Shown piece after piece: positions 1,845-59,937 of a DNA stretch of 64,000 nt (position 1 is its first letter; the number at the start of each line of letters is the position of its first letter). Both the position numbers and the translations under genes were made by a program. The notes beneath the pieces were generated by a model. That model saw only the letters and a program-made list of their open reading frames with translations. It did no database searches and was not told the origin of the DNA. Origin of the DNA: Escherichia coli (GTDB lineage Bacteria > Pseudomonadota > Gammaproteobacteria > Enterobacterales > Enterobacteriaceae); NCBI RefSeq assembly GCF_050920415.1, contig NZ_CP169309.1. One strand, 5' to 3'.

Positions 1845-3779
1845 ATGGCGAAAAACCTAATACTCTGGCTGGTCATTGCCGTTGTGCTGATGTCAGTATT
1901 CCAGAGCTTTGGGCCCAGCGAGTCTAATGGCCGTAAGGTGGATTACTCTACCTTCCTACAAGAGGTCAATAACGACCAGGTTCGTGAAGCGCGTATCAAC
2001 GGACGTGAAATCAACGTTACCAAGAAAGATAGTAACCGTTATACCACTTACATTCCGGTTCAGGATCCGAAATTACTGGATAACCTGTTGACCAAGAACG
2101 TCAAGGTTGTCGGTGAACCGCCTGAAGAACCAAGCCTGCTGGCTTCTATCTTCATCTCCTGGTTCCCGATGCTGTTGCTGATTGGTGTCTGGATCTTCTT
2201 CATGCGTCAAATGCAGGGCGGCGGTGGCAAAGGTGCCATGTCGTTCGGTAAGAGCAAAGCGCGCATGCTGACGGAAGATCAGATCAAAACGACCTTTGCT
2301 GACGTTGCGGGCTGCGACGAAGCAAAAGAAGAAGTTGCTGAACTGGTTGAGTATCTGCGCGAGCCGAGCCGCTTCCAGAAACTCGGCGGTAAGATCCCGA
2401 AAGGCGTCCTGATGGTCGGTCCTCCGGGTACCGGTAAAACGCTGCTGGCGAAAGCGATTGCAGGCGAAGCGAAAGTTCCGTTCTTTACTATCTCCGGTTC
2501 TGACTTCGTAGAAATGTTCGTCGGTGTGGGTGCATCCCGTGTTCGTGACATGTTCGAACAGGCGAAGAAAGCGGCTCCGTGCATCATCTTTATCGATGAA
2601 ATCGACGCCGTAGGCCGCCAGCGTGGCGCAGGTCTGGGCGGTGGTCACGATGAACGTGAACAGACTCTGAACCAGATGCTGGTTGAGATGGATGGCTTCG
2701 AAGGTAACGAAGGTATCATCGTTATCGCTGCGACTAACCGTCCGGACGTTCTCGACCCGGCGCTGCTGCGTCCTGGCCGTTTCGACCGTCAGGTTGTGGT
2801 TGGCTTGCCAGATGTTCGCGGCCGTGAGCAGATTCTGAAAGTTCACATGCGTCGCGTACCATTGGCACCCGATATCGACGCGGCAATCATTGCCCGTGGT
2901 ACTCCTGGTTTCTCCGGTGCTGACCTGGCGAACCTGGTGAACGAAGCGGCACTGTTCGCTGCTCGTGGCAACAAACGTGTTGTGTCGATGGTTGAGTTCG
3001 AGAAAGCGAAAGACAAAATCATGATGGGTGCGGAACGTCGCTCCATGGTGATGACGGAAGCGCAAAAAGAATCGACTGCTTACCACGAAGCAGGTCACGC
3101 GATTATCGGTCGCCTGGTGCCGGAACACGATCCGGTGCACAAAGTAACGATTATCCCGCGCGGTCGTGCGCTGGGTGTGACCTTCTTCTTGCCTGAGGGC
3201 GACGCAATCAGCGCCAGCCGTCAGAAACTGGAAAGCCAGATTTCTACGCTGTACGGCGGTCGTCTGGCTGAAGAGATCATCTACGGGCCGGAACATGTTT
3301 CTACCGGGGCGTCCAACGATATTAAAGTTGCGACCAACCTGGCGCGTAACATGGTTACCCAGTGGGGCTTCTCTGAGAAACTCGGTCCGCTGCTGTATGC
3401 GGAAGAAGAAGGTGAAGTGTTCCTCGGTCGTAGCGTAGCGAAAGCGAAACATATGTCCGATGAAACGGCACGCATCATCGACCAGGAAGTGAAAGCACTG
3501 ATCGAGCGTAACTATAATCGTGCGCGTCAGCTTCTGACCGACAACATGGATATTCTGCATGCGATGAAAGATGCTCTCATGAAATATGAGACTATCGACG
3601 CACCGCAGATTGATGACCTGATGGCACGTCGCGATGTACGTCCGCCAGCGGGCTGGGAAGAACCAGGCGCTTCTAACAATTCTGGCGACAATGGTAGTCC
3701 AAAGGCTCCGCGTCCGGTTGATGAACCGCGTACGCCGAACCCGGGTAACACCATGTCAGAGCAGTTAGGCGACAAGTAA
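1845..3779 (+). CDS. ftsH: ATP-dependent zinc metalloprotease FtsH
   Basis: 644 aa from [10 protein letters not shown]; Walker [12 protein letters not shown] region, HEAGH zinc motif; track ORF starts 9 nt upstream at TTG. Confidence 0.95.
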
Positions 3780-10925: not shown

Positions 10926-12284
<1,359 letters not shown>

Positions 12285-49029: not shown

Positions 49030-49247
49030 TAATCTTTCGTTTTGTTTCAGTTGATACTGCGTCATGGTGAGATAAAAATAAAACGAAAGATAATAGTTTT
49101 CTGATCTGATTCACAAAAGAAACATAATGAAAGTCACTGAAACGAGAGTAGCTTGCGTCAATGGGCAAGGTGGGCTTGCATTTGCTCAATAGAAAGGCGT
49201 TAATAGACAAAACGAAATGAAACGAAAGTTTTACGAAAGGACTTACT
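49030..49247. promoter_or_regulatory. divergent kbaZ / agaR control region with AgaR operator repeats
   Basis: CTTTCGTTTTGTTTCAG (49034-49050), AAAACGAAAG (49077-49089), AAAACGAAATGAAACGAAAGTTTTACGAAAGG (49208-49240). Confidence 0.65.
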
Positions 49248-50111: not shown

Positions 50112-50576
50112 TCAATGGTTTTCTTCTGTCTCTTGGGTGAGGCTTTCCCAGCCGGCAGGAGGATGTCCTCTTTTTAACATTTTACTGAATACGGTATAGG
50201 CATCTGTTTTTTTACCGTAGGTGCGCAGCGTGTTTTCATCGTTCATCCATCCCAGAATGATGACTTTCTCTTTTTCACTGTAACGAAAGAAGAGACGATA
50301 GCGACCAGCACCAAATTTTACCCGTGACCAGTCTTTATTTTTCCCAGAGCCTAACGACTTGCCATGACGGAATGCCGGTGATGATGGATTGACCGTGATA
50401 TGCTCCTCAATCACTTTATGGACCACCGCCAATAACTTTGTGGCAGCTTTTCTCTGATAATTTTCAGGATCTTTTCCCTTTAATGCCTCGACTTCGGCAA
50501 CTAAAGCATCGTAGGTTTCCTGAAAACAGGGATGAGCATATAGCGCCCAACCATTAACCCTTTGTGGAAAATCCAT
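50112..50576 (-). CDS. yhaV: type II toxin YhaV (ribosome-dependent mRNA interferase)
   Basis: 154-aa ORF MDFPQRVNGWALYAHPCFQETYDALVAEVEALKGKDPEN... Confidence 0.9.
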   Translation of the reverse strand: MDFPQRVNGWALYAHPCFQETYDALVAEVEALKGKDPENYQRKAATKLLAVVHKVIEEHITVNPSSPAFRHGKSLGSGKNKDWSRVKFGAGRYRLFFRYSEKEKVIILGWMNDENTLRTYGKKTDAYTVFSKMLKRGHPPAGWESLTQETEENH

Positions 50577-50911
50577 TATTCGTCGTCGCCAATCTCATCG
50601 TCAATGTTGACGTCCATGCCAGCGACAAGTTTCTTTCCTTGTTGAATGTCGAATGGACGAGTTTTTTGCGGGTTATTCTGGATATCTGCATCCAGAAAAC
50701 GCAAAAATGCATTCATAGTATGATCCTCCTGTTCATCTCCCAGTCGGCACATAAATACTTGCCCACCAGGCAGAATTTCGTAATGAATGCTGTCCAGGCC
50801 TGGCTTCAGTTTTAAGGCCTCACGCACTGGCGCGGGGATAGTTGTTTGTCCGCGTATCGTGACCTTTGATTCAGTGGTCAGTACAGCGTTAGAGCGAGCA
50901 TTAGCGGGCAT
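50576..50911 (-). CDS. prlF: antitoxin PrlF (SohA), AbrB/SpoVT-type
   Basis: 111-aa ORF with acidic C-terminus; stop overlaps yhaV start by 1 nt. Confidence 0.9.
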   Translation of the reverse strand: MPANARSNAVLTTESKVTIRGQTTIPAPVREALKLKPGLDSIHYEILPGGQVFMCRLGDEQEDHTMNAFLRFLDADIQNNPQKTRPFDIQQGKKLVAGMDVNIDDEIGDDE

Positions 50912-51059: not shown

Positions 51060-52631
51060 TCAAGTCACCGGTGCCGGGTTAAACACCGCCAGCTGGTTAT
51101 GCAGTCCCCATTGATCTGAGAAGGTTTTCTTCTTCCCGCTGGCGACGTCGAGAATAAAATGGAACAATTTCCAGCCCACCTCTTCAATAGTTTCTTCGCC
51201 GGTAGCGATGGTGCCCGCATTAATATCCATTAAATCAAACCAGCGGTTCGCCAGCTCGGTGCGGGTCGCCATTTTAATGACGGGTACCGCCATCAGGCCG
51301 TACGGCGTACCACGGCCGGTCGTAAACACTTGCACGGTAATCCCCGAAGCCACCTGTTGCGTGCCACAGACAAAATCGCTGGCTGGCGTCGCAGCGTAAA
51401 TTAATCCGCGTTTAGTCGGGCGTTGACCGGGCGACAGCACTTCAACAATTGCACTTTTACCCGATTTAGCAATGGAGCCGAGCGCTTTCTCCACCACATT
51501 TGCCAGACCGCCTTTCTTGTTGCCCGGCGAAGGGTTGGCGCTGCGGTCGGTTTTTCCCATATTGAGATAGTTATCGTACCACTCCATCTCCTCCAGCAGC
51601 CGTTTGCCGACCTCTTCGTTCACTGCGCGCGGCGTCAGCAGATGGATCGCGTCACGCACTTCTGTGACTTCCGAGAACATCACCGTTGCACCGCAGCGCA
51701 CCAGTAGATCAGATGCATAACCCACGGCTGGATTTGCCGTTACGCCAGAAAACGCATCGCTGCCACCGCACTGCATGCCGACAACCAGTTCTGAAGCCGG
51801 ACAGGTTTCTCGCTGACGTTGATTCAGTTTTTGTAGATGGCGTTCGGCGACCTGCAAAATATCCTCGACCATGGACTGAAAACCGACATGCTTTTCATCC
51901 TGCAAACTGACAATGCTGGCGCTTTCTACTGGAATAGCTTGCACATCATCCGTTCCAGTCAGCAGGCGTTCAGGCTGCAACTTTTCACAACCCAGACCAA
52001 TCACCATTACTTCGCCGCCAAAGTTAGGGTTCAGCGAAATATTGTGAATGGTACGAATAGGCACAACTGCCGCCGGTGCGTTAATCGCCACGCCACAACC
52101 GTACAAATGATTCAGCCCCACCACGCCATCGACGTTCGGGTATTTCGGTAGCAGATCGCGTTCAATGATTTTTACTACATAGTCCACCACGCCTGCCACA
52201 CAGTGGACGCTGGTGGTGATGCCGAGCAGGTTTTTGGTGCCCACGCTGCCATCGGCATTGCGATAGCCCTCAAAGGTGTATCCTTCCAGTGGCGGTAAGG
52301 GGGCCGGGACTTTAGTTGCCAGTGGCAGCGTGTGTAACGGTGGCGCTTCCGGTAGTACAACCATTGATTCGTCGATCCAGCTTCCGCGTGGGATTGCGCG
52401 CACGGCGTAACCAATCACTTCACCATAACGAATAATTTCACCATTAGCCGGAATGTCCAGCAATGCGACTTTATGCCCCTGGGGAATATGTTCAATTAAT
52501 TCCAGCCCATCCGGAAAACGCGTTCCTGCTTTCAGGCCATTATCATTAACAATAATTGCCACATTATCTGTGTCGTGAACTTTTATATAAAACGCAGTTG
52601 GCGTTTCTTGTCTGATTTCGATGTTGGCCAT
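51060..52631 (-). CDS. garD: galactarate dehydratase
   Basis: 523-aa [40 protein letters not shown]... Confidence 0.93.
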
Positions 52632-53005
52632 TGTGCAATATTCTCCAGCCAGGGGTTATTAAAATGAGGACCTGGTCTCATTTAAAAATAAATGACTTCA
52701 TTGGGTGAAATAAGAATGTCAGGAGTTTAAACGCAGAAATGTGATCAATGTCAATCATTTCAGGGATTGCAGTGCCGCCCGGCAGGGTAAAGAGCAAATC
52801 TGTGCTTTAGCGCGCAACCTTATGTGCATATGCTCAAAATAATATTTAAATAGTAATAATTAAATTAGCATTTGCACAATGATTATTATTCTCTCGCTGC
52901 TTATACTAATTCCTGAGTTCATTGTCGTAACGGCATAAATAAAACTCATAAATAACACCTTCCCCATAATAATAAAAATCAGCATAAGTACCCGAGGTAA
53001 ATAAA

Positions 53006-54340
53006 ATGATTCTGGACACCGTTGACGTAAAAAAGAAAGGCGTGCATACCCGCTATTTAATATTACTGATTATTTTTATTGTTACCGCCGTTAACTACGC
53101 CGATCGTGCAACGCTGTCTATTGCTGGTACCGAAGTGGCAAAAGAGTTGCAGTTAAGTGCGGTTTCGATGGGTTACATCTTTTCTGCTTTTGGCTGGGCC
53201 TACTTGCTGATGCAAATCCCCGGCGGCTGGCTGCTTGATAAGTTTGGCTCGAAAAAAGTTTACACCTACAGCCTCTTTTTCTGGTCGCTATTCACCTTCC
53301 TGCAAGGCTTTGTTGATATGTTCCCGCTGGCCTGGGCAGGGATCTCCATGTTCTTTATGCGCTTTATGCTCGGCTTCTCGGAAGCGCCATCATTCCCGGC
53401 GAACGCCCGTATTGTCGCCGCCTGGTTCCCGACGAAAGAACGTGGTACTGCCTCCGCCATCTTTAACTCGGCGCAATATTTCTCGCTGGCGCTCTTTTCG
53501 CCTCTGCTTGGCTGGCTGACTTTCGCCTGGGGATGGGAGCACGTCTTTACCGTTATGGGGGTGATTGGTTTTGTGCTGACGGCGCTGTGGATCAAGTTGA
53601 TTCATAACCCGACAGATCACCCACGTATGTCTGCGGAAGAGCTGAAGTTTATATCTGAAAATGGCGCGGTGGTCGATATGGACCACAAAAAGCCGGGCAG
53701 CGCGGCAGCAAGCGGTCCCAAACTGCATTACATCAAGCAATTGCTCTCTAACCGCATGATGTTGGGCGTATTTTTCGGACAATATTTTATCAACACCATC
53801 ACCTGGTTCTTCCTCACCTGGTTCCCGATTTATCTGGTGCAGGAAAAAGGCATGTCGATTCTGAAAGTGGGTCTGGTCGCCTCGATTCCGGCACTGTGTG
53901 GTTTTGCGGGCGGCGTGCTGGGAGGTATCTTCTCGGATTATCTGATCAAACGCGGTTTGTCCCTGACCCTGGCACGTAAGCTACCGATTGTGCTGGGAAT
54001 GTTGCTGGCTTCCACCATCATCTTATGTAACTACACCAATAACACCACGCTGGTGGTCATGCTGATGGCGCTGGCCTTCTTTGGCAAAGGATTTGGCGCG
54101 CTGGGCTGGCCGGTGATTTCTGACACCGCGCCGAAAGAGATAGTTGGCCTCTGCGGCGGCGTCTTTAACGTCTTTGGAAATGTTGCCTCCATTGTCACTC
54201 CACTGGTGATTGGCTACCTGGTAAGTGAACTGAACTCCTTCAATGCAGCACTGGTTTTCGTGGGATGTTCAGCGCTGATGGCGATGGTCTGCTACCTCTT
54301 CGTAGTTGGCGACATTAAACGTATGGAATTGCAGAAATAA
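53006..54340 (+). CDS. garP: galactarate/glucarate MFS transporter
   Basis: 444-aa MFS ORF. Confidence 0.9.
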   Translation: MILDTVDVKKKGVHTRYLILLIIFIVTAVNYADRATLSIAGTEVAKELQLSAVSMGYIFSAFGWAYLLMQIPGGWLLDKFGSKKVYTYSLFFWSLFTFLQGFVDMFPLAWAGISMFFMRFMLGFSEAPSFPANARIVAAWFPTKERGTASAIFNSAQYFSLALFSPLLGWLTFAWGWEHVFTVMGVIGFVLTALWIKLIHNPTDHPRMSAEELKFISENGAVVDMDHKKPGSAAASGPKLHYIKQLLSNRMMLGVFFGQYFINTITWFFLTWFPIYLVQEKGMSILKVGLVASIPALCGFAGGVLGGIFSDYLIKRGLSLTLARKLPIVLGMLLASTIILCNYTNNTTLVVMLMALAFFGKGFGALGWPVISDTAPKEIVGLCGGVFNVFGNVASIVTPLVIGYLVSELNSFNAALVFVGCSALMAMVCYLFVVGDIKRMELQK

Positions 54341-55126: not shown

Positions 55127-55161
55127 CCACCACCGCAACAAGAGAGATGATTGATATGACT

Positions 55162-56046
55162 ATGAAAGTTGGTTTTATTGGCCTGGGGATTATGGGTAAA
55201 CCAATGAGTAAAAACCTTCTGAAAGCAGGTTACTCGCTGGTGGTTGCTGACCGTAACCCAGAAGCTATTGCTGACGTGATTGCAGCAGGTGCAGAAACAG
55301 CTTCTACGGCTAAAGCGATCGCTGAACAGTGCGACGTCATCATAACCATGCTGCCAAACTCCCCTCATGTGAAAGAGGTGGCGCTGGGTGAGAATGGCAT
55401 TATTGAAGGCGCGAAGCCAGGTACGGTATTGATCGATATGAGTTCTATTGCACCGCTGGCAAGCCGTGAAATAAGCGAAGCGCTGAAAGCGAAAGGCATT
55501 GATATGCTGGACGCCCCGGTGAGCGGCGGTGAACCGAAAGCCATCGACGGTACGCTGTCAGTGATGGTGGGCGGCGACAAGGCTATTTTCGACAAATACT
55601 ATGATTTGATGAAAGCGATGGCGGGTTCCGTGGTGCATACCGGGGAAATCGGTGCAGGTAACGTCACCAAACTGGCAAATCAGGTCATTGTGGCGCTGAA
55701 TATTGCCGCGATGTCAGAAGCGTTAACGCTGGCAACCAAAGCGGGCGTTAACCCGGATCTGGTGTATCAGGCAATTCGCGGTGGACTGGCGGGCAGTACC
55801 GTGCTGGATGCCAAAGCGCCGATGGTGATGGACCGCAACTTCAAGCCGGGCTTCCGTATTGATCTGCATATTAAGGATCTGGCAAATGCGCTGGATACTT
55901 CCCACGGCGTCGGCGCGCAACTGCCGCTCACAGCTGCGGTTATGGAGATGATGCAGGCACTGCGTGCCGATGGTTTAGGAACGGCGGATCATAGCGCCCT
56001 GGCGTGCTACTACGAAAAACTGGCGAAAGTCGAAGTTACTCGCTAA
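55162..56046 (+). CDS. garR: tartronate semialdehyde reductase
   Basis: 294 aa from MTMKVGFIGLGIMGKPM (NAD-binding GxGxxG). Confidence 0.93.
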   Translation: MKVGFIGLGIMGKPMSKNLLKAGYSLVVADRNPEAIADVIAAGAETASTAKAIAEQCDVIITMLPNSPHVKEVALGENGIIEGAKPGTVLIDMSSIAPLASREISEALKAKGIDMLDAPVSGGEPKAIDGTLSVMVGGDKAIFDKYYDLMKAMAGSVVHTGEIGAGNVTKLANQVIVALNIAAMSEALTLATKAGVNPDLVYQAIRGGLAGSTVLDAKAPMVMDRNFKPGFRIDLHIKDLANALDTSHGVGAQLPLTAAVMEMMQALRADGLGTADHSALACYYEKLAKVEVTR

Positions 56047-56142
56047 TGACGTCGTGCCCGGATGGCGTATTGCAATCCGGGCCTGGAATCCAGGCCGAAT
56101 AAGAGAAACGCCCTCCGGCGTCATGTGGTAACAGGCATAGGT

Positions 56143-57288
56143 ATGAAAATCGTAATCGCCCCAGACTCTTATAAAGAAAGTTTATCTGCCAGCGAGGTTG
56201 CGCAGGCCATAGAAAAAGGATTTCGGGAAATTTTTCCTGATGCACAGTATGTTTCCGTTCCGGTTGCCGACGGTGGTGAAGGAACGGTGGAAGCCATGAT
56301 TGCAGCCACCCAGGGGGCTGAACGTCACGCCTGGGTTACAGGGCCGCTGGGCGAGAAAGTGAATGCCAGTTGGGGGATCTCCGGCGATGGCAAAACCGCG
56401 TTTATCGAAATGGCGGCGGCCAGTGGGCTGGAACTGGTACCTGCGGAAAAACGCGATCCACTTGTGACCACTTCACGCGGTACTGGCGAGTTAATCCTGC
56501 AGGCGCTGGAGAGCGGCGCGACAAACATTATTATCGGCATTGGCGGCAGCGCCACCAACGACGGCGGCGCAGGCATGGTGCAGGCGCTGGGGGCGAAATT
56601 ATGCGATGCCAACGGCAATGAAATTGGTTTTGGCGGCGGTAGCCTTAATACTCTGAATGATATTGATATTTCCGGCCTCGATCCGCGCTTAAAAGATTGT
56701 GCTATTCGCGTCGCTTGTGATGTCACCAATCCGCTGGTGGGCGATAACGGCGCATCGCACATCTTTGGCCCACAAAAGGGAGCCAGTGAAGCGATGATTG
56801 TCGAGCTGGACAATAACCTCTCTCACTATGCCGATGTCATTAAAAAAGCGCTGCATGTTGATGTGAAAGATGTCCCCGGCGCAGGAGCTGCGGGCGGTAT
56901 GGGCGCGGCGCTGATGGCGTTTCTTGGTGCGGAACTGAAAAGTGGTATTGAAATCGTCACGACGGCGCTGAATCTGGAGGAACATATTCACGATTGTACG
57001 CTGGTGATCACCGGTGAAGGGCGTATTGACAGCCAGAGTATACACGGCAAGGTTCCGATTGGCGTCGCAAACGTGGCGAAAAAGTACCATAAACCGGTGA
57101 TTGGCATTGCGGGTAGCCTGACCAATGATGTTGGCGTTGTACATCAGCATGGCATTGATGCGGTCTTCAGCGTATTGACCAGTATTGGTACGTTGGACGA
57201 AGCATTCCGCGGGGCTTATGACAATATTTACCGTGCTTCACGTAATATCGCCGCGACACTGGCGATTGGAATGCGCAACGCGGGGTGA
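56143..57288 (+). CDS. garK: glycerate 2-kinase
   Basis: 381 aa from MKIVIAPDSYKESLSASEVAQAIEKGF. Confidence 0.9.
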   Translation: MKIVIAPDSYKESLSASEVAQAIEKGFREIFPDAQYVSVPVADGGEGTVEAMIAATQGAERHAWVTGPLGEKVNASWGISGDGKTAFIEMAAASGLELVPAEKRDPLVTTSRGTGELILQALESGATNIIIGIGGSATNDGGAGMVQALGAKLCDANGNEIGFGGGSLNTLNDIDISGLDPRLKDCAIRVACDVTNPLVGDNGASHIFGPQKGASEAMIVELDNNLSHYADVIKKALHVDVKDVPGAGAAGGMGAALMAFLGAELKSGIEIVTTALNLEEHIHDCTLVITGEGRIDSQSIHGKVPIGVANVAKKYHKPVIGIAGSLTNDVGVVHQHGIDAVFSVLTSIGTLDEAFRGAYDNIYRASRNIAATLAIGMRNAG

Positions 57289-57320: not shown

Positions 57321-57697
<377 letters not shown>

Positions 57698-59720: not shown

Positions 59721-59937
59721 GACAAACAATAATCAATGCTTATTTTCCTTGCACGGTTCGCTCACAACTATCAAAAAACGCTCAATTACCCGGCATTACA
59801 GTCAACGAAGCAAAATTCTGTGGTCTACAACGATGTAAAGCACAACGAAAATCCTCCTTGTTCTCTTATTCTGATCGTATAGCGATGAACATCAATTATT
59901 CGTTTTGTGATCCTCAACACAAAATGCTATTTAGTAA

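Follow-up and report, generated by a model that had tools for sequence, protein, structure and literature searches.

The locus examined here lies within a 64-kb window of Escherichia coli DNA, the window being the whole stretch that was analysed (64,000 nucleotides), and consists of two divergently oriented transcription units and the spacer that separates them. On the minus strand, garD (51060-52631) is a 523-aa ORF that was identified as galactarate dehydratase by the TIGR03248 profile (940 bits against a cut-off of 731 bits). On the plus strand, garP (53006-54340) is a 444-aa ORF matched by NCBIfam as an MFS transporter of the galactonate/glucarate type, and it is followed by three further plus-strand ORFs that correspond to garL, garR and garK according to NCBIfam. 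Delimited by the ORF list and the NCBIfam matches, the spacer between garD and garP extends from 52632 to 53005. An earlier note on this DNA had described it as a 370-bp AT-rich spacer flanked by divergent garD and garPLRK. The divergent arrangement is supported by the ORF list, by NCBIfam and by the RefSeq annotation of one 100%-identical strain (garD, garP, garL, garR, garK and rnpB), and the spacer is indeed AT-rich, having a GC content of 0.353 versus 0.507 for the whole window, while its length has to be corrected to 374 bp.

In the surroundings of the spacer, the mechanical ORFs of garK (56062-57288, 408 aa) and garR (55147-56046, 299 aa) exceed the annotated or profile-supported lengths, with the NCBIfam match of garK beginning at residue 28 and RefSeq placing the starts at ~56143 for garK and ~55156 for garR. 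The RNase P RNA gene rnpB (~57321-57697, plus strand) lies 33 bp 3' of garK on the same strand as garPLRK, as annotated by RefSeq in the identical strain. Directly downstream of garD is the prlF-yhaV type II toxin-antitoxin pair (50112-50911, minus strand), in which PrlF was confirmed by NCBIfam and YhaV, for which NCBIfam gave no match, takes its name from the RefSeq annotation only.

The garD-garP spacer is core E. coli DNA: megablast matched the locus in 5,424 of 5,426 complete E. coli genomes, and the match spans at least 80% of the query in 5,394 of the 5,426. About 30 of the 5,424 lack most of the garD-garP region. One example is E. coli PEC41 (NZ_CM168023.1, locus L086), a strain that lacks garD, the entire spacer and the upstream genes up to a truncated fimbrial usher gene, and in which an IS1A element adjoins a 5'-truncated garP (2790-3602 of that locus). 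Identity of at least 99% over 52400-53300 was found in only 30 of the 5,425 matching E. coli records, most of which show 98-98.7%, indicating that the lineage of the window is sparsely sampled. Compared with K-12 MG1655, the spacer carries eight differences (52783, 52785, 52793, 52856, 52894, 52914, 52929 and 52941; 98% identity), and none of the eight falls in any of the predicted operator boxes, the CRP site or the −10 elements described below.

To place individual elements, GTDB species genomes were scanned with GarD, yielding 80 loci, 41 of which carry a full-length garP divergently upstream of garD. The footprint alignment comprises these 41 species spacers plus the window (n=42), all from Enterobacteriaceae, so that relatedness among the 42 species makes the conservation percentages given here overstate the number of independent observations. 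Spacer length ranges from 370 to 525 bp among species, with all variation confined to the two leaders. The conserved blocks consist of both Shine-Dalgarno regions, an 18-nt block at 52706-52723, the half-sites of a CRP site, three stretches at 52801-11, 52823-33 and 52868-81, and the hexamer TATACT at 52902-07. Given that these discrete conserved blocks stand amid freely varying sequence in 42 species, the low GC content is not mere intergenic composition.

The CRP site is the experimentally best-supported site of the spacer. In K-12, the sequence aaTGTGAtcaatgTCAATcat, whose centre is position 3275166 in the spacer of garP and garD, has been reported to bind CRP in vitro with a Kd of 1.9 nM by Footprint-seq (PMC12871828, Table 1), and the window carries an identical site at 52738-52758, with a 16-mer core at 52740-52755. 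In addition, an ETEC study reported a CRP ChIP-seq peak at garP/garD and proposed TGTGATCAATGTCAAT and TGTGCTTTAGCGCGCA as its candidate sites (PMC4287617). A CRP matrix was built from 39 other Footprint-seq validated sites, whose own scores range from 9.8 to 22.1 bits, and this independent matrix gave 15.1 bits to 52738-57. The half-sites are conserved across the 42 species. The same matrix also gave two strong matches elsewhere in the window. One is TTTGTGATCCTCAACACAAA at 59904-59923 (17.4 bits), which is the yhaB site for which the Footprint-seq preprint gives a Kd of 3.8 nM (PMC12871828), and the other is TTTCTGATCTGATTCACAAA at 49098-49117 (14.6 bits), located in the divergent spacer between kbaZ and agaR.

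Three further conserved stretches fit a 14-bp imperfect palindrome, TGnGC-N4-GCACA, with centres at 52807.5, 52829.5 and 52871.5 that are 22 and 42 bp apart. The GCACA half of each box is always on the side of the gene to which the box points. Two of the boxes read in the garD sense on the minus strand: the proximal box, CGCGC-TAAA-GCACA (52801-52814, 15.0 bits), is conserved in position in all species, and the distal box, TGAGC-ATAT-GCACA (52823-52836, 24.4 bits), is nearly invariant in 41 species. The third, termed the garP box, reads TTAGC-ATTT-GCACA on the plus strand (52865-52878, 19.7 bits), and GCATTTGCACAATG in its region is identical to a sequence upstream of K-12 cdaR. The sequence string that the earlier note had quoted was located at 52847-52890, so that it includes one putative operator box. 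The scores come from a 20-mer matrix of 16 bits built from garD-garP spacers only. Across the 64-kb window it gave four matches that reach 15 bits or more, three of which fall within the spacer, the distal box being the best. The sole such match outside the spacer, GATGGCGCTGCTGCACATTG at 11363-11382 (minus strand, 15.3 bits), lies inside a 447-aa ORF (10926-12269, minus strand). We also considered TTGCACAATG at 52629-52638 (minus strand), in which a strong box half plus ATG overlies the garD start codon and which repeats 52872-52881 perfectly in inverted orientation. It is probably a chance occurrence, because the full-box score is 5.7 bits and G52635 and A52638 are Escherichia-specific.

Promoter regions that had not contributed to the matrix show the box in a fixed register relative to a −10-like hexamer. 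Upstream of K-12 cdaR, exactly 20 nt separate the end of the top match (19.5 bits) from TATGCT; upstream of K-12 gudP, the top match is weak (9.2 bits) and ends exactly 20 nt before TATACT, and each of these two upstream regions holds only one TATRCT hexamer. In 29 distant Enterobacterales loci that were likewise outside the matrix, TAT[AGT][ACT]T was found at offset 20 for 21 of 58 unique matches of at least 12 bits, with 0-3 hexamers at every remaining offset between 14 and 26. Furthermore, a box followed by N20 and TATGCT or TATTCT precedes a CdaR-family gene beside garD in Serratia (L077) and in a second locus (L052), and both of the encoded regulators carry the Diacid_rec, GGDEF_2 and HTH_30 (PucR-type HTH) domains. 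In response to glucarate, CdaR has been shown to activate both PgudP and cdaR itself (PMC4551912, PMC7544201). Because the box is common to garP, gudP, cdaR and cdaR-like genes, as would be the case for an autoregulated CdaR, we infer that TGnGC-N4-GCACA is the CdaR operator. The three boxes match the motif found at the cdaR and gudP promoters, which agrees with the earlier expectation of CdaR (SdaR) sites in this spacer. A literature search for published CdaR-DNA footprint, ChIP, SELEX or genome-wide binding data found none.

One could argue that the AT-richness is merely intergenic or reflects H-NS binding, and that the motifs are by-products of shared ancestry, given that GC content is low across most of the spacer and that the species compared are all Enterobacteriaceae. 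However, conservation is block-wise, with invariant hexamers and boxes standing beside segments that are fixed in length and fully divergent in sequence, the matrix predicts the right register at unlinked loci and in other Enterobacterales families, and CRP binding has been measured experimentally (PMC4287617, PMC12871828). This explanation is already contradicted by the independent-locus tests, and we give it almost no weight.

A second alternative concerns the identity of the boxes, which might be auxiliary, low-affinity CRP sites of the form TGTGC-N4-GC, with CdaR binding elsewhere in the spacer. The boxes have TGTG in common with CRP half-sites, the second candidate CRP site proposed under the ETEC garP/garD peak, TGTGCTTTAGCGCGCA, corresponds to 52801-52816 (PMC4287617), and the CRP matrix gives the distal box 9.2 bits, slightly less than the weakest validated site (9.8 bits). 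By contrast, the proximal box reaches only 4.9 bits with that matrix and the garP box is absent among its top matches, while the table of novel CRP sites obtained by Footprint-seq lists only one site in the spacer with a Kd of 10 nM or less (PMC12871828). In the boxes, the half-sites stand 4 bp apart instead of 6, and TGTG is invariably followed by C. The box stands in the same register to the −10 element before cdaR, gudP and garP, it precedes CdaR-family genes in three lineages, and K-12 cdaR has a separate true CRP-like site. The CRP-matrix scores, the 4-bp half-site spacing, the invariant C and this separate site led us to treat the boxes as a distinct motif, and their being CRP sites appears very unlikely. 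The CRP-like site in question, TGTGAACTTCACCACA (558-573 of the K-12 cdaR locus, L004), is located upstream of the cdaR box at a distance of 39 bp, or about −81.5 relative to the start predicted for cdaR; should it serve as a CRP site, cdaR itself would combine CRP and CdaR control.

With the boxes read as CdaR operators, a garP promoter can be predicted immediately downstream of the garP box. Its −10 element, TATACT (52902-52907, plus strand), agrees with the consensus at five of six positions, is 100% conserved in the 42 species and lies 17 bp after a predicted −35 element, aTGAtt (52879-52884, plus strand), which is weak (3/6) and abuts the garP box. Within this −35, the T and G do not vary among the 42 species, and the base before them is a purine (A or G) in every case. 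TATACT lies exactly 20 nt after the garP box plus RTG, the same register as at K-12 cdaR (TATGCT) and gudP (TATACT). Taking the hexamer as −12 to −7, garP transcription is predicted to start at ~52914 (52913-52915), relative to which the garP box is centred at about −42.5 and the other two boxes at about −84.5 and −106.5. A strict scan for sigma-70 promoter and terminator consensus found neither a promoter nor a terminator within the spacer. This result and the weak −35 fit activator-dependent promoters.

The predicted garP 5' leader (52914-53005, plus strand) is about 92 nt long and carries the Shine-Dalgarno sequence GAGG at 52994-52997, outside of which it is poorly conserved and indel-rich. 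A 41-aa ORF at 52860-52985 (minus strand) was rejected as a gene, as it sits in this non-conserved, indel-rich leader. On the other side, the predicted garD 5' leader (52632-52705, minus strand) is about 75 nt long, with the Shine-Dalgarno sequence GGAG (CTCC on the plus strand, 52643-52646). That sequence and its adjoining bases are 90-100% conserved in the 42 species, and the remaining leader varies in length. We also considered a cis-regulatory leader RNA or riboswitch. No Rfam match was found in the spacer at E <= 1, neither leader folds beyond shuffled sequence (z = −0.02 for garP and +0.99 for garD), and both leaders are indel-rich. There is no RNA element in the spacer, and this candidate was dismissed.

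On the garD side, conservation in the spacer peaks at CCTGACATTCTT (52706-52723, garD strand), a block that contains an extended −10-like sequence, TGaCATTCT (52713-52721, minus strand), with CATTCT (52718→52713) as the predicted hexamer. Conservation along this hexamer is 100/100/100/70/90/100%, so that A2 and the final T are both 100% conserved. It is probably the garD core promoter, one that would lack a −35 element, with transcription starting at ~52706. With the hexamer at −12 to −7, the dyad of the CRP site (52747.5) falls exactly at −41.5 of this predicted start, and the two tandem boxes lie at about −101.5 and −123.5. Together with the garP −10, predicted −10 elements were found in either direction, in line with the earlier proposal that the spacer holds both promoters. 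That note had also considered the individual sites not definable by eye; they have now been placed by matrices and footprinting, and among them the high-affinity CRP site at 52740-52755 had been overlooked.

The same block admits a class I reading of the garD promoter, in which CTGACA (52722→52717, minus strand) would serve as the −35 element, transcription would start at ~52687 and CRP would be centred at about −60.5 to −61.5. CTGACA matches TTGACA at five of six positions and is almost invariant, and this arrangement puts CRP close to the canonical class I position. However, the sequence 16-18 bp after CTGACA contains no −10-like hexamer in E. coli (it reads GAAGTC), and the region downstream of CTGACA is poorly conserved across species, whereas the overlapping CATTCT keeps A2 and T6 in every species and places CRP exactly at −41.5. 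Because no conserved −10 follows CTGACA, we ranked the class I reading below the class II one and regard it as unlikely. A CdaR-dependent class II promoter for garD starting right after the proximal box was likewise rejected, as the expected −10 position reads CGGCAC.

The distant Enterobacterales offer a simpler version of the garD promoter. In Rahnella (L070, L071 and L073, ~2839-2890) and Sodalis (L069, 2862-2910), garD lies behind a single box followed by N20-21 and TATAAT or TATACT, and the same single-box promoter, N20-21 and TATAAT/TATACT, was found in Brenneria (L063, L065) and in an Enterobacterales MAG (L085, 2681-2730). The tandem-box plus CRP arrangement does not occur at these distant garD promoters. 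Given this simple single-box promoter, the tandem boxes and CRP site of Enterobacteriaceae look derived, a comparison suggesting that the garD promoter was reorganised while its regulator stayed the same.

The elements between the two promoters are held at fixed distances. In anchored, ungapped comparisons of start-to-start distances, the CRP 16-mer is 61 bp from the proximal box in 41 of 41 species, the proximal and distal boxes lie 22 bp apart in every species compared (41-42), the distal box is 42 bp from the garP box in 42 of 42 (one sequence having been re-anchored), and the garP box is 37 bp from TATACT, a distance invariant in 41-42 species. Every spacing from the predicted garD core promoter to the garP −10 is equal in the 42 Enterobacteriaceae species. 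Two intervening segments keep their length and not their sequence. The first is a GC-rich linker of 39 bp (52759-52797, 59% GC), fixed in length and free in sequence, in which three of the eight K-12 differences lie. A hairpin was looked for in it, and no consensus structure was found on either strand across species (mean z −0.5); we read it as a phasing linker. The second is a 22-bp AT tract (52840-52861, 5% GC) between the distal and garP boxes, fixed in length and loosely conserved in sequence, for which DNA bending, H-NS binding or a role as an UP-like element are candidate functions. Such strictly fixed spacing of elements implies one stereospecific protein-DNA assembly.

Taken together, we consider it probable that the spacer is a bidirectional control region for galactarate/glucarate/glycerate catabolism on which CdaR acts at three boxes along with CRP. 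In the mechanism that we propose, CdaR (SdaR, of the PucR family) would bind the three 14-bp palindromes TGnGC-N4-GCACA. At the rightmost box, which abuts the weak −35, it would act as a class II-type activator and drive garPLRK from TATACT. On the other side, CRP bound at 52740-52755 would sit at −41.5 of the garD promoter TGaCATTCT, and the two tandem CdaR boxes could serve garD as an upstream activating site, so that garD expression would depend on cAMP-CRP as well as on effector-bound CdaR. Such activation of garD from −101.5 and −123.5 is a mechanistic proposal. A more elaborate version, which we put forward tentatively and hold to be somewhat less probable than its opposite, views the indel-free block of ~200 bp (52706-52919) as a composite machine, in which a CdaR oligomer on three phased operators and a DNA-bending CRP dimer would fire the divergent promoters coordinately. 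In that version, garD of Enterobacteriaceae would have switched from a simple box-N20-TATAAT CdaR promoter, of the kind retained in Rahnella, Sodalis and Brenneria, to a CRP class II promoter with remote co-activation by CdaR.

These features place the region among known systems. Catabolism of galactarate and glucarate is CdaR-induced and subject to catabolite control. The promoters of garD, garPLRK, gudPXD and cdaR reportedly form the CdaR (SdaR) regulon, as described by Monterrubio et al. in 2000 in the Journal of Bacteriology. The window spacer is the garD/garPLRK member of this regulon of E. coli, with the same genes in the same organism, and garP has the box-N20-TATRCT signature in common with the regulon promoters of cdaR and gudP. 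There is no difference in kind, as the eight substitutions of the window allele lie outside the predicted sites. The predicted garD promoter resembles galP1, a class II CRP-dependent promoter with an extended −10, in having CRP at −41.5 of its predicted start, no good −35 and a TGn before the −10, but it differs from galP1 by two further activator boxes upstream at fixed distances. Divergent catabolic control regions of a related design are malEp-malKp (MalT and CRP) and araC-araBAD (AraC and CRP), where, as between garD and garP, divergent promoters share phased activator sites and CRP within a few hundred bp. The rigid garD-garP spacing, as in regions of this type, suggests a higher-order nucleoprotein complex, whereas the regulator at garD-garP differs from theirs in being of the PucR/CdaR type with Diacid_rec and HTH_30. 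A gamma-proteobacterial SdaR motif predicted by comparative genomics was published as a figure by Rodionov et al. in 2010 (PMC2996990), and it concerns the same regulator family and follows the same logic, being found in front of garK-type and gar/gud genes adjacent to sdaR.

The garD-garP control region is accordingly already-known E. coli biology, to which the present analysis adds a coordinate-level map and the rigid spacing. The nucleotide-level operator map itself is what we infer from sequence comparison, and it was not found in the accessible literature. Enterobacterial expansion in the gut during inflammation or upon antibiotic treatment is promoted in part by the gar/gud pathway, and biosensors for glucarate and glycerate make use of P_garP, P_gudP and CdaR. 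Among the CdaR-regulated promoters tested, P_garP was the most glycerate-responsive, with CdaR mediating the response in reporter assays, and has been put to biosensor use (bioRxiv 10.1101/2024.05.15.594374). The map opens no new biological question, and its base-level account of probable operators, CRP site and spacing could aid the design of minimal or tuned biosensor promoters. If the composite arrangement and the proposed switch of garD are true, the garD-garP region would document how the architecture of a promoter can turn over while its regulator is conserved.
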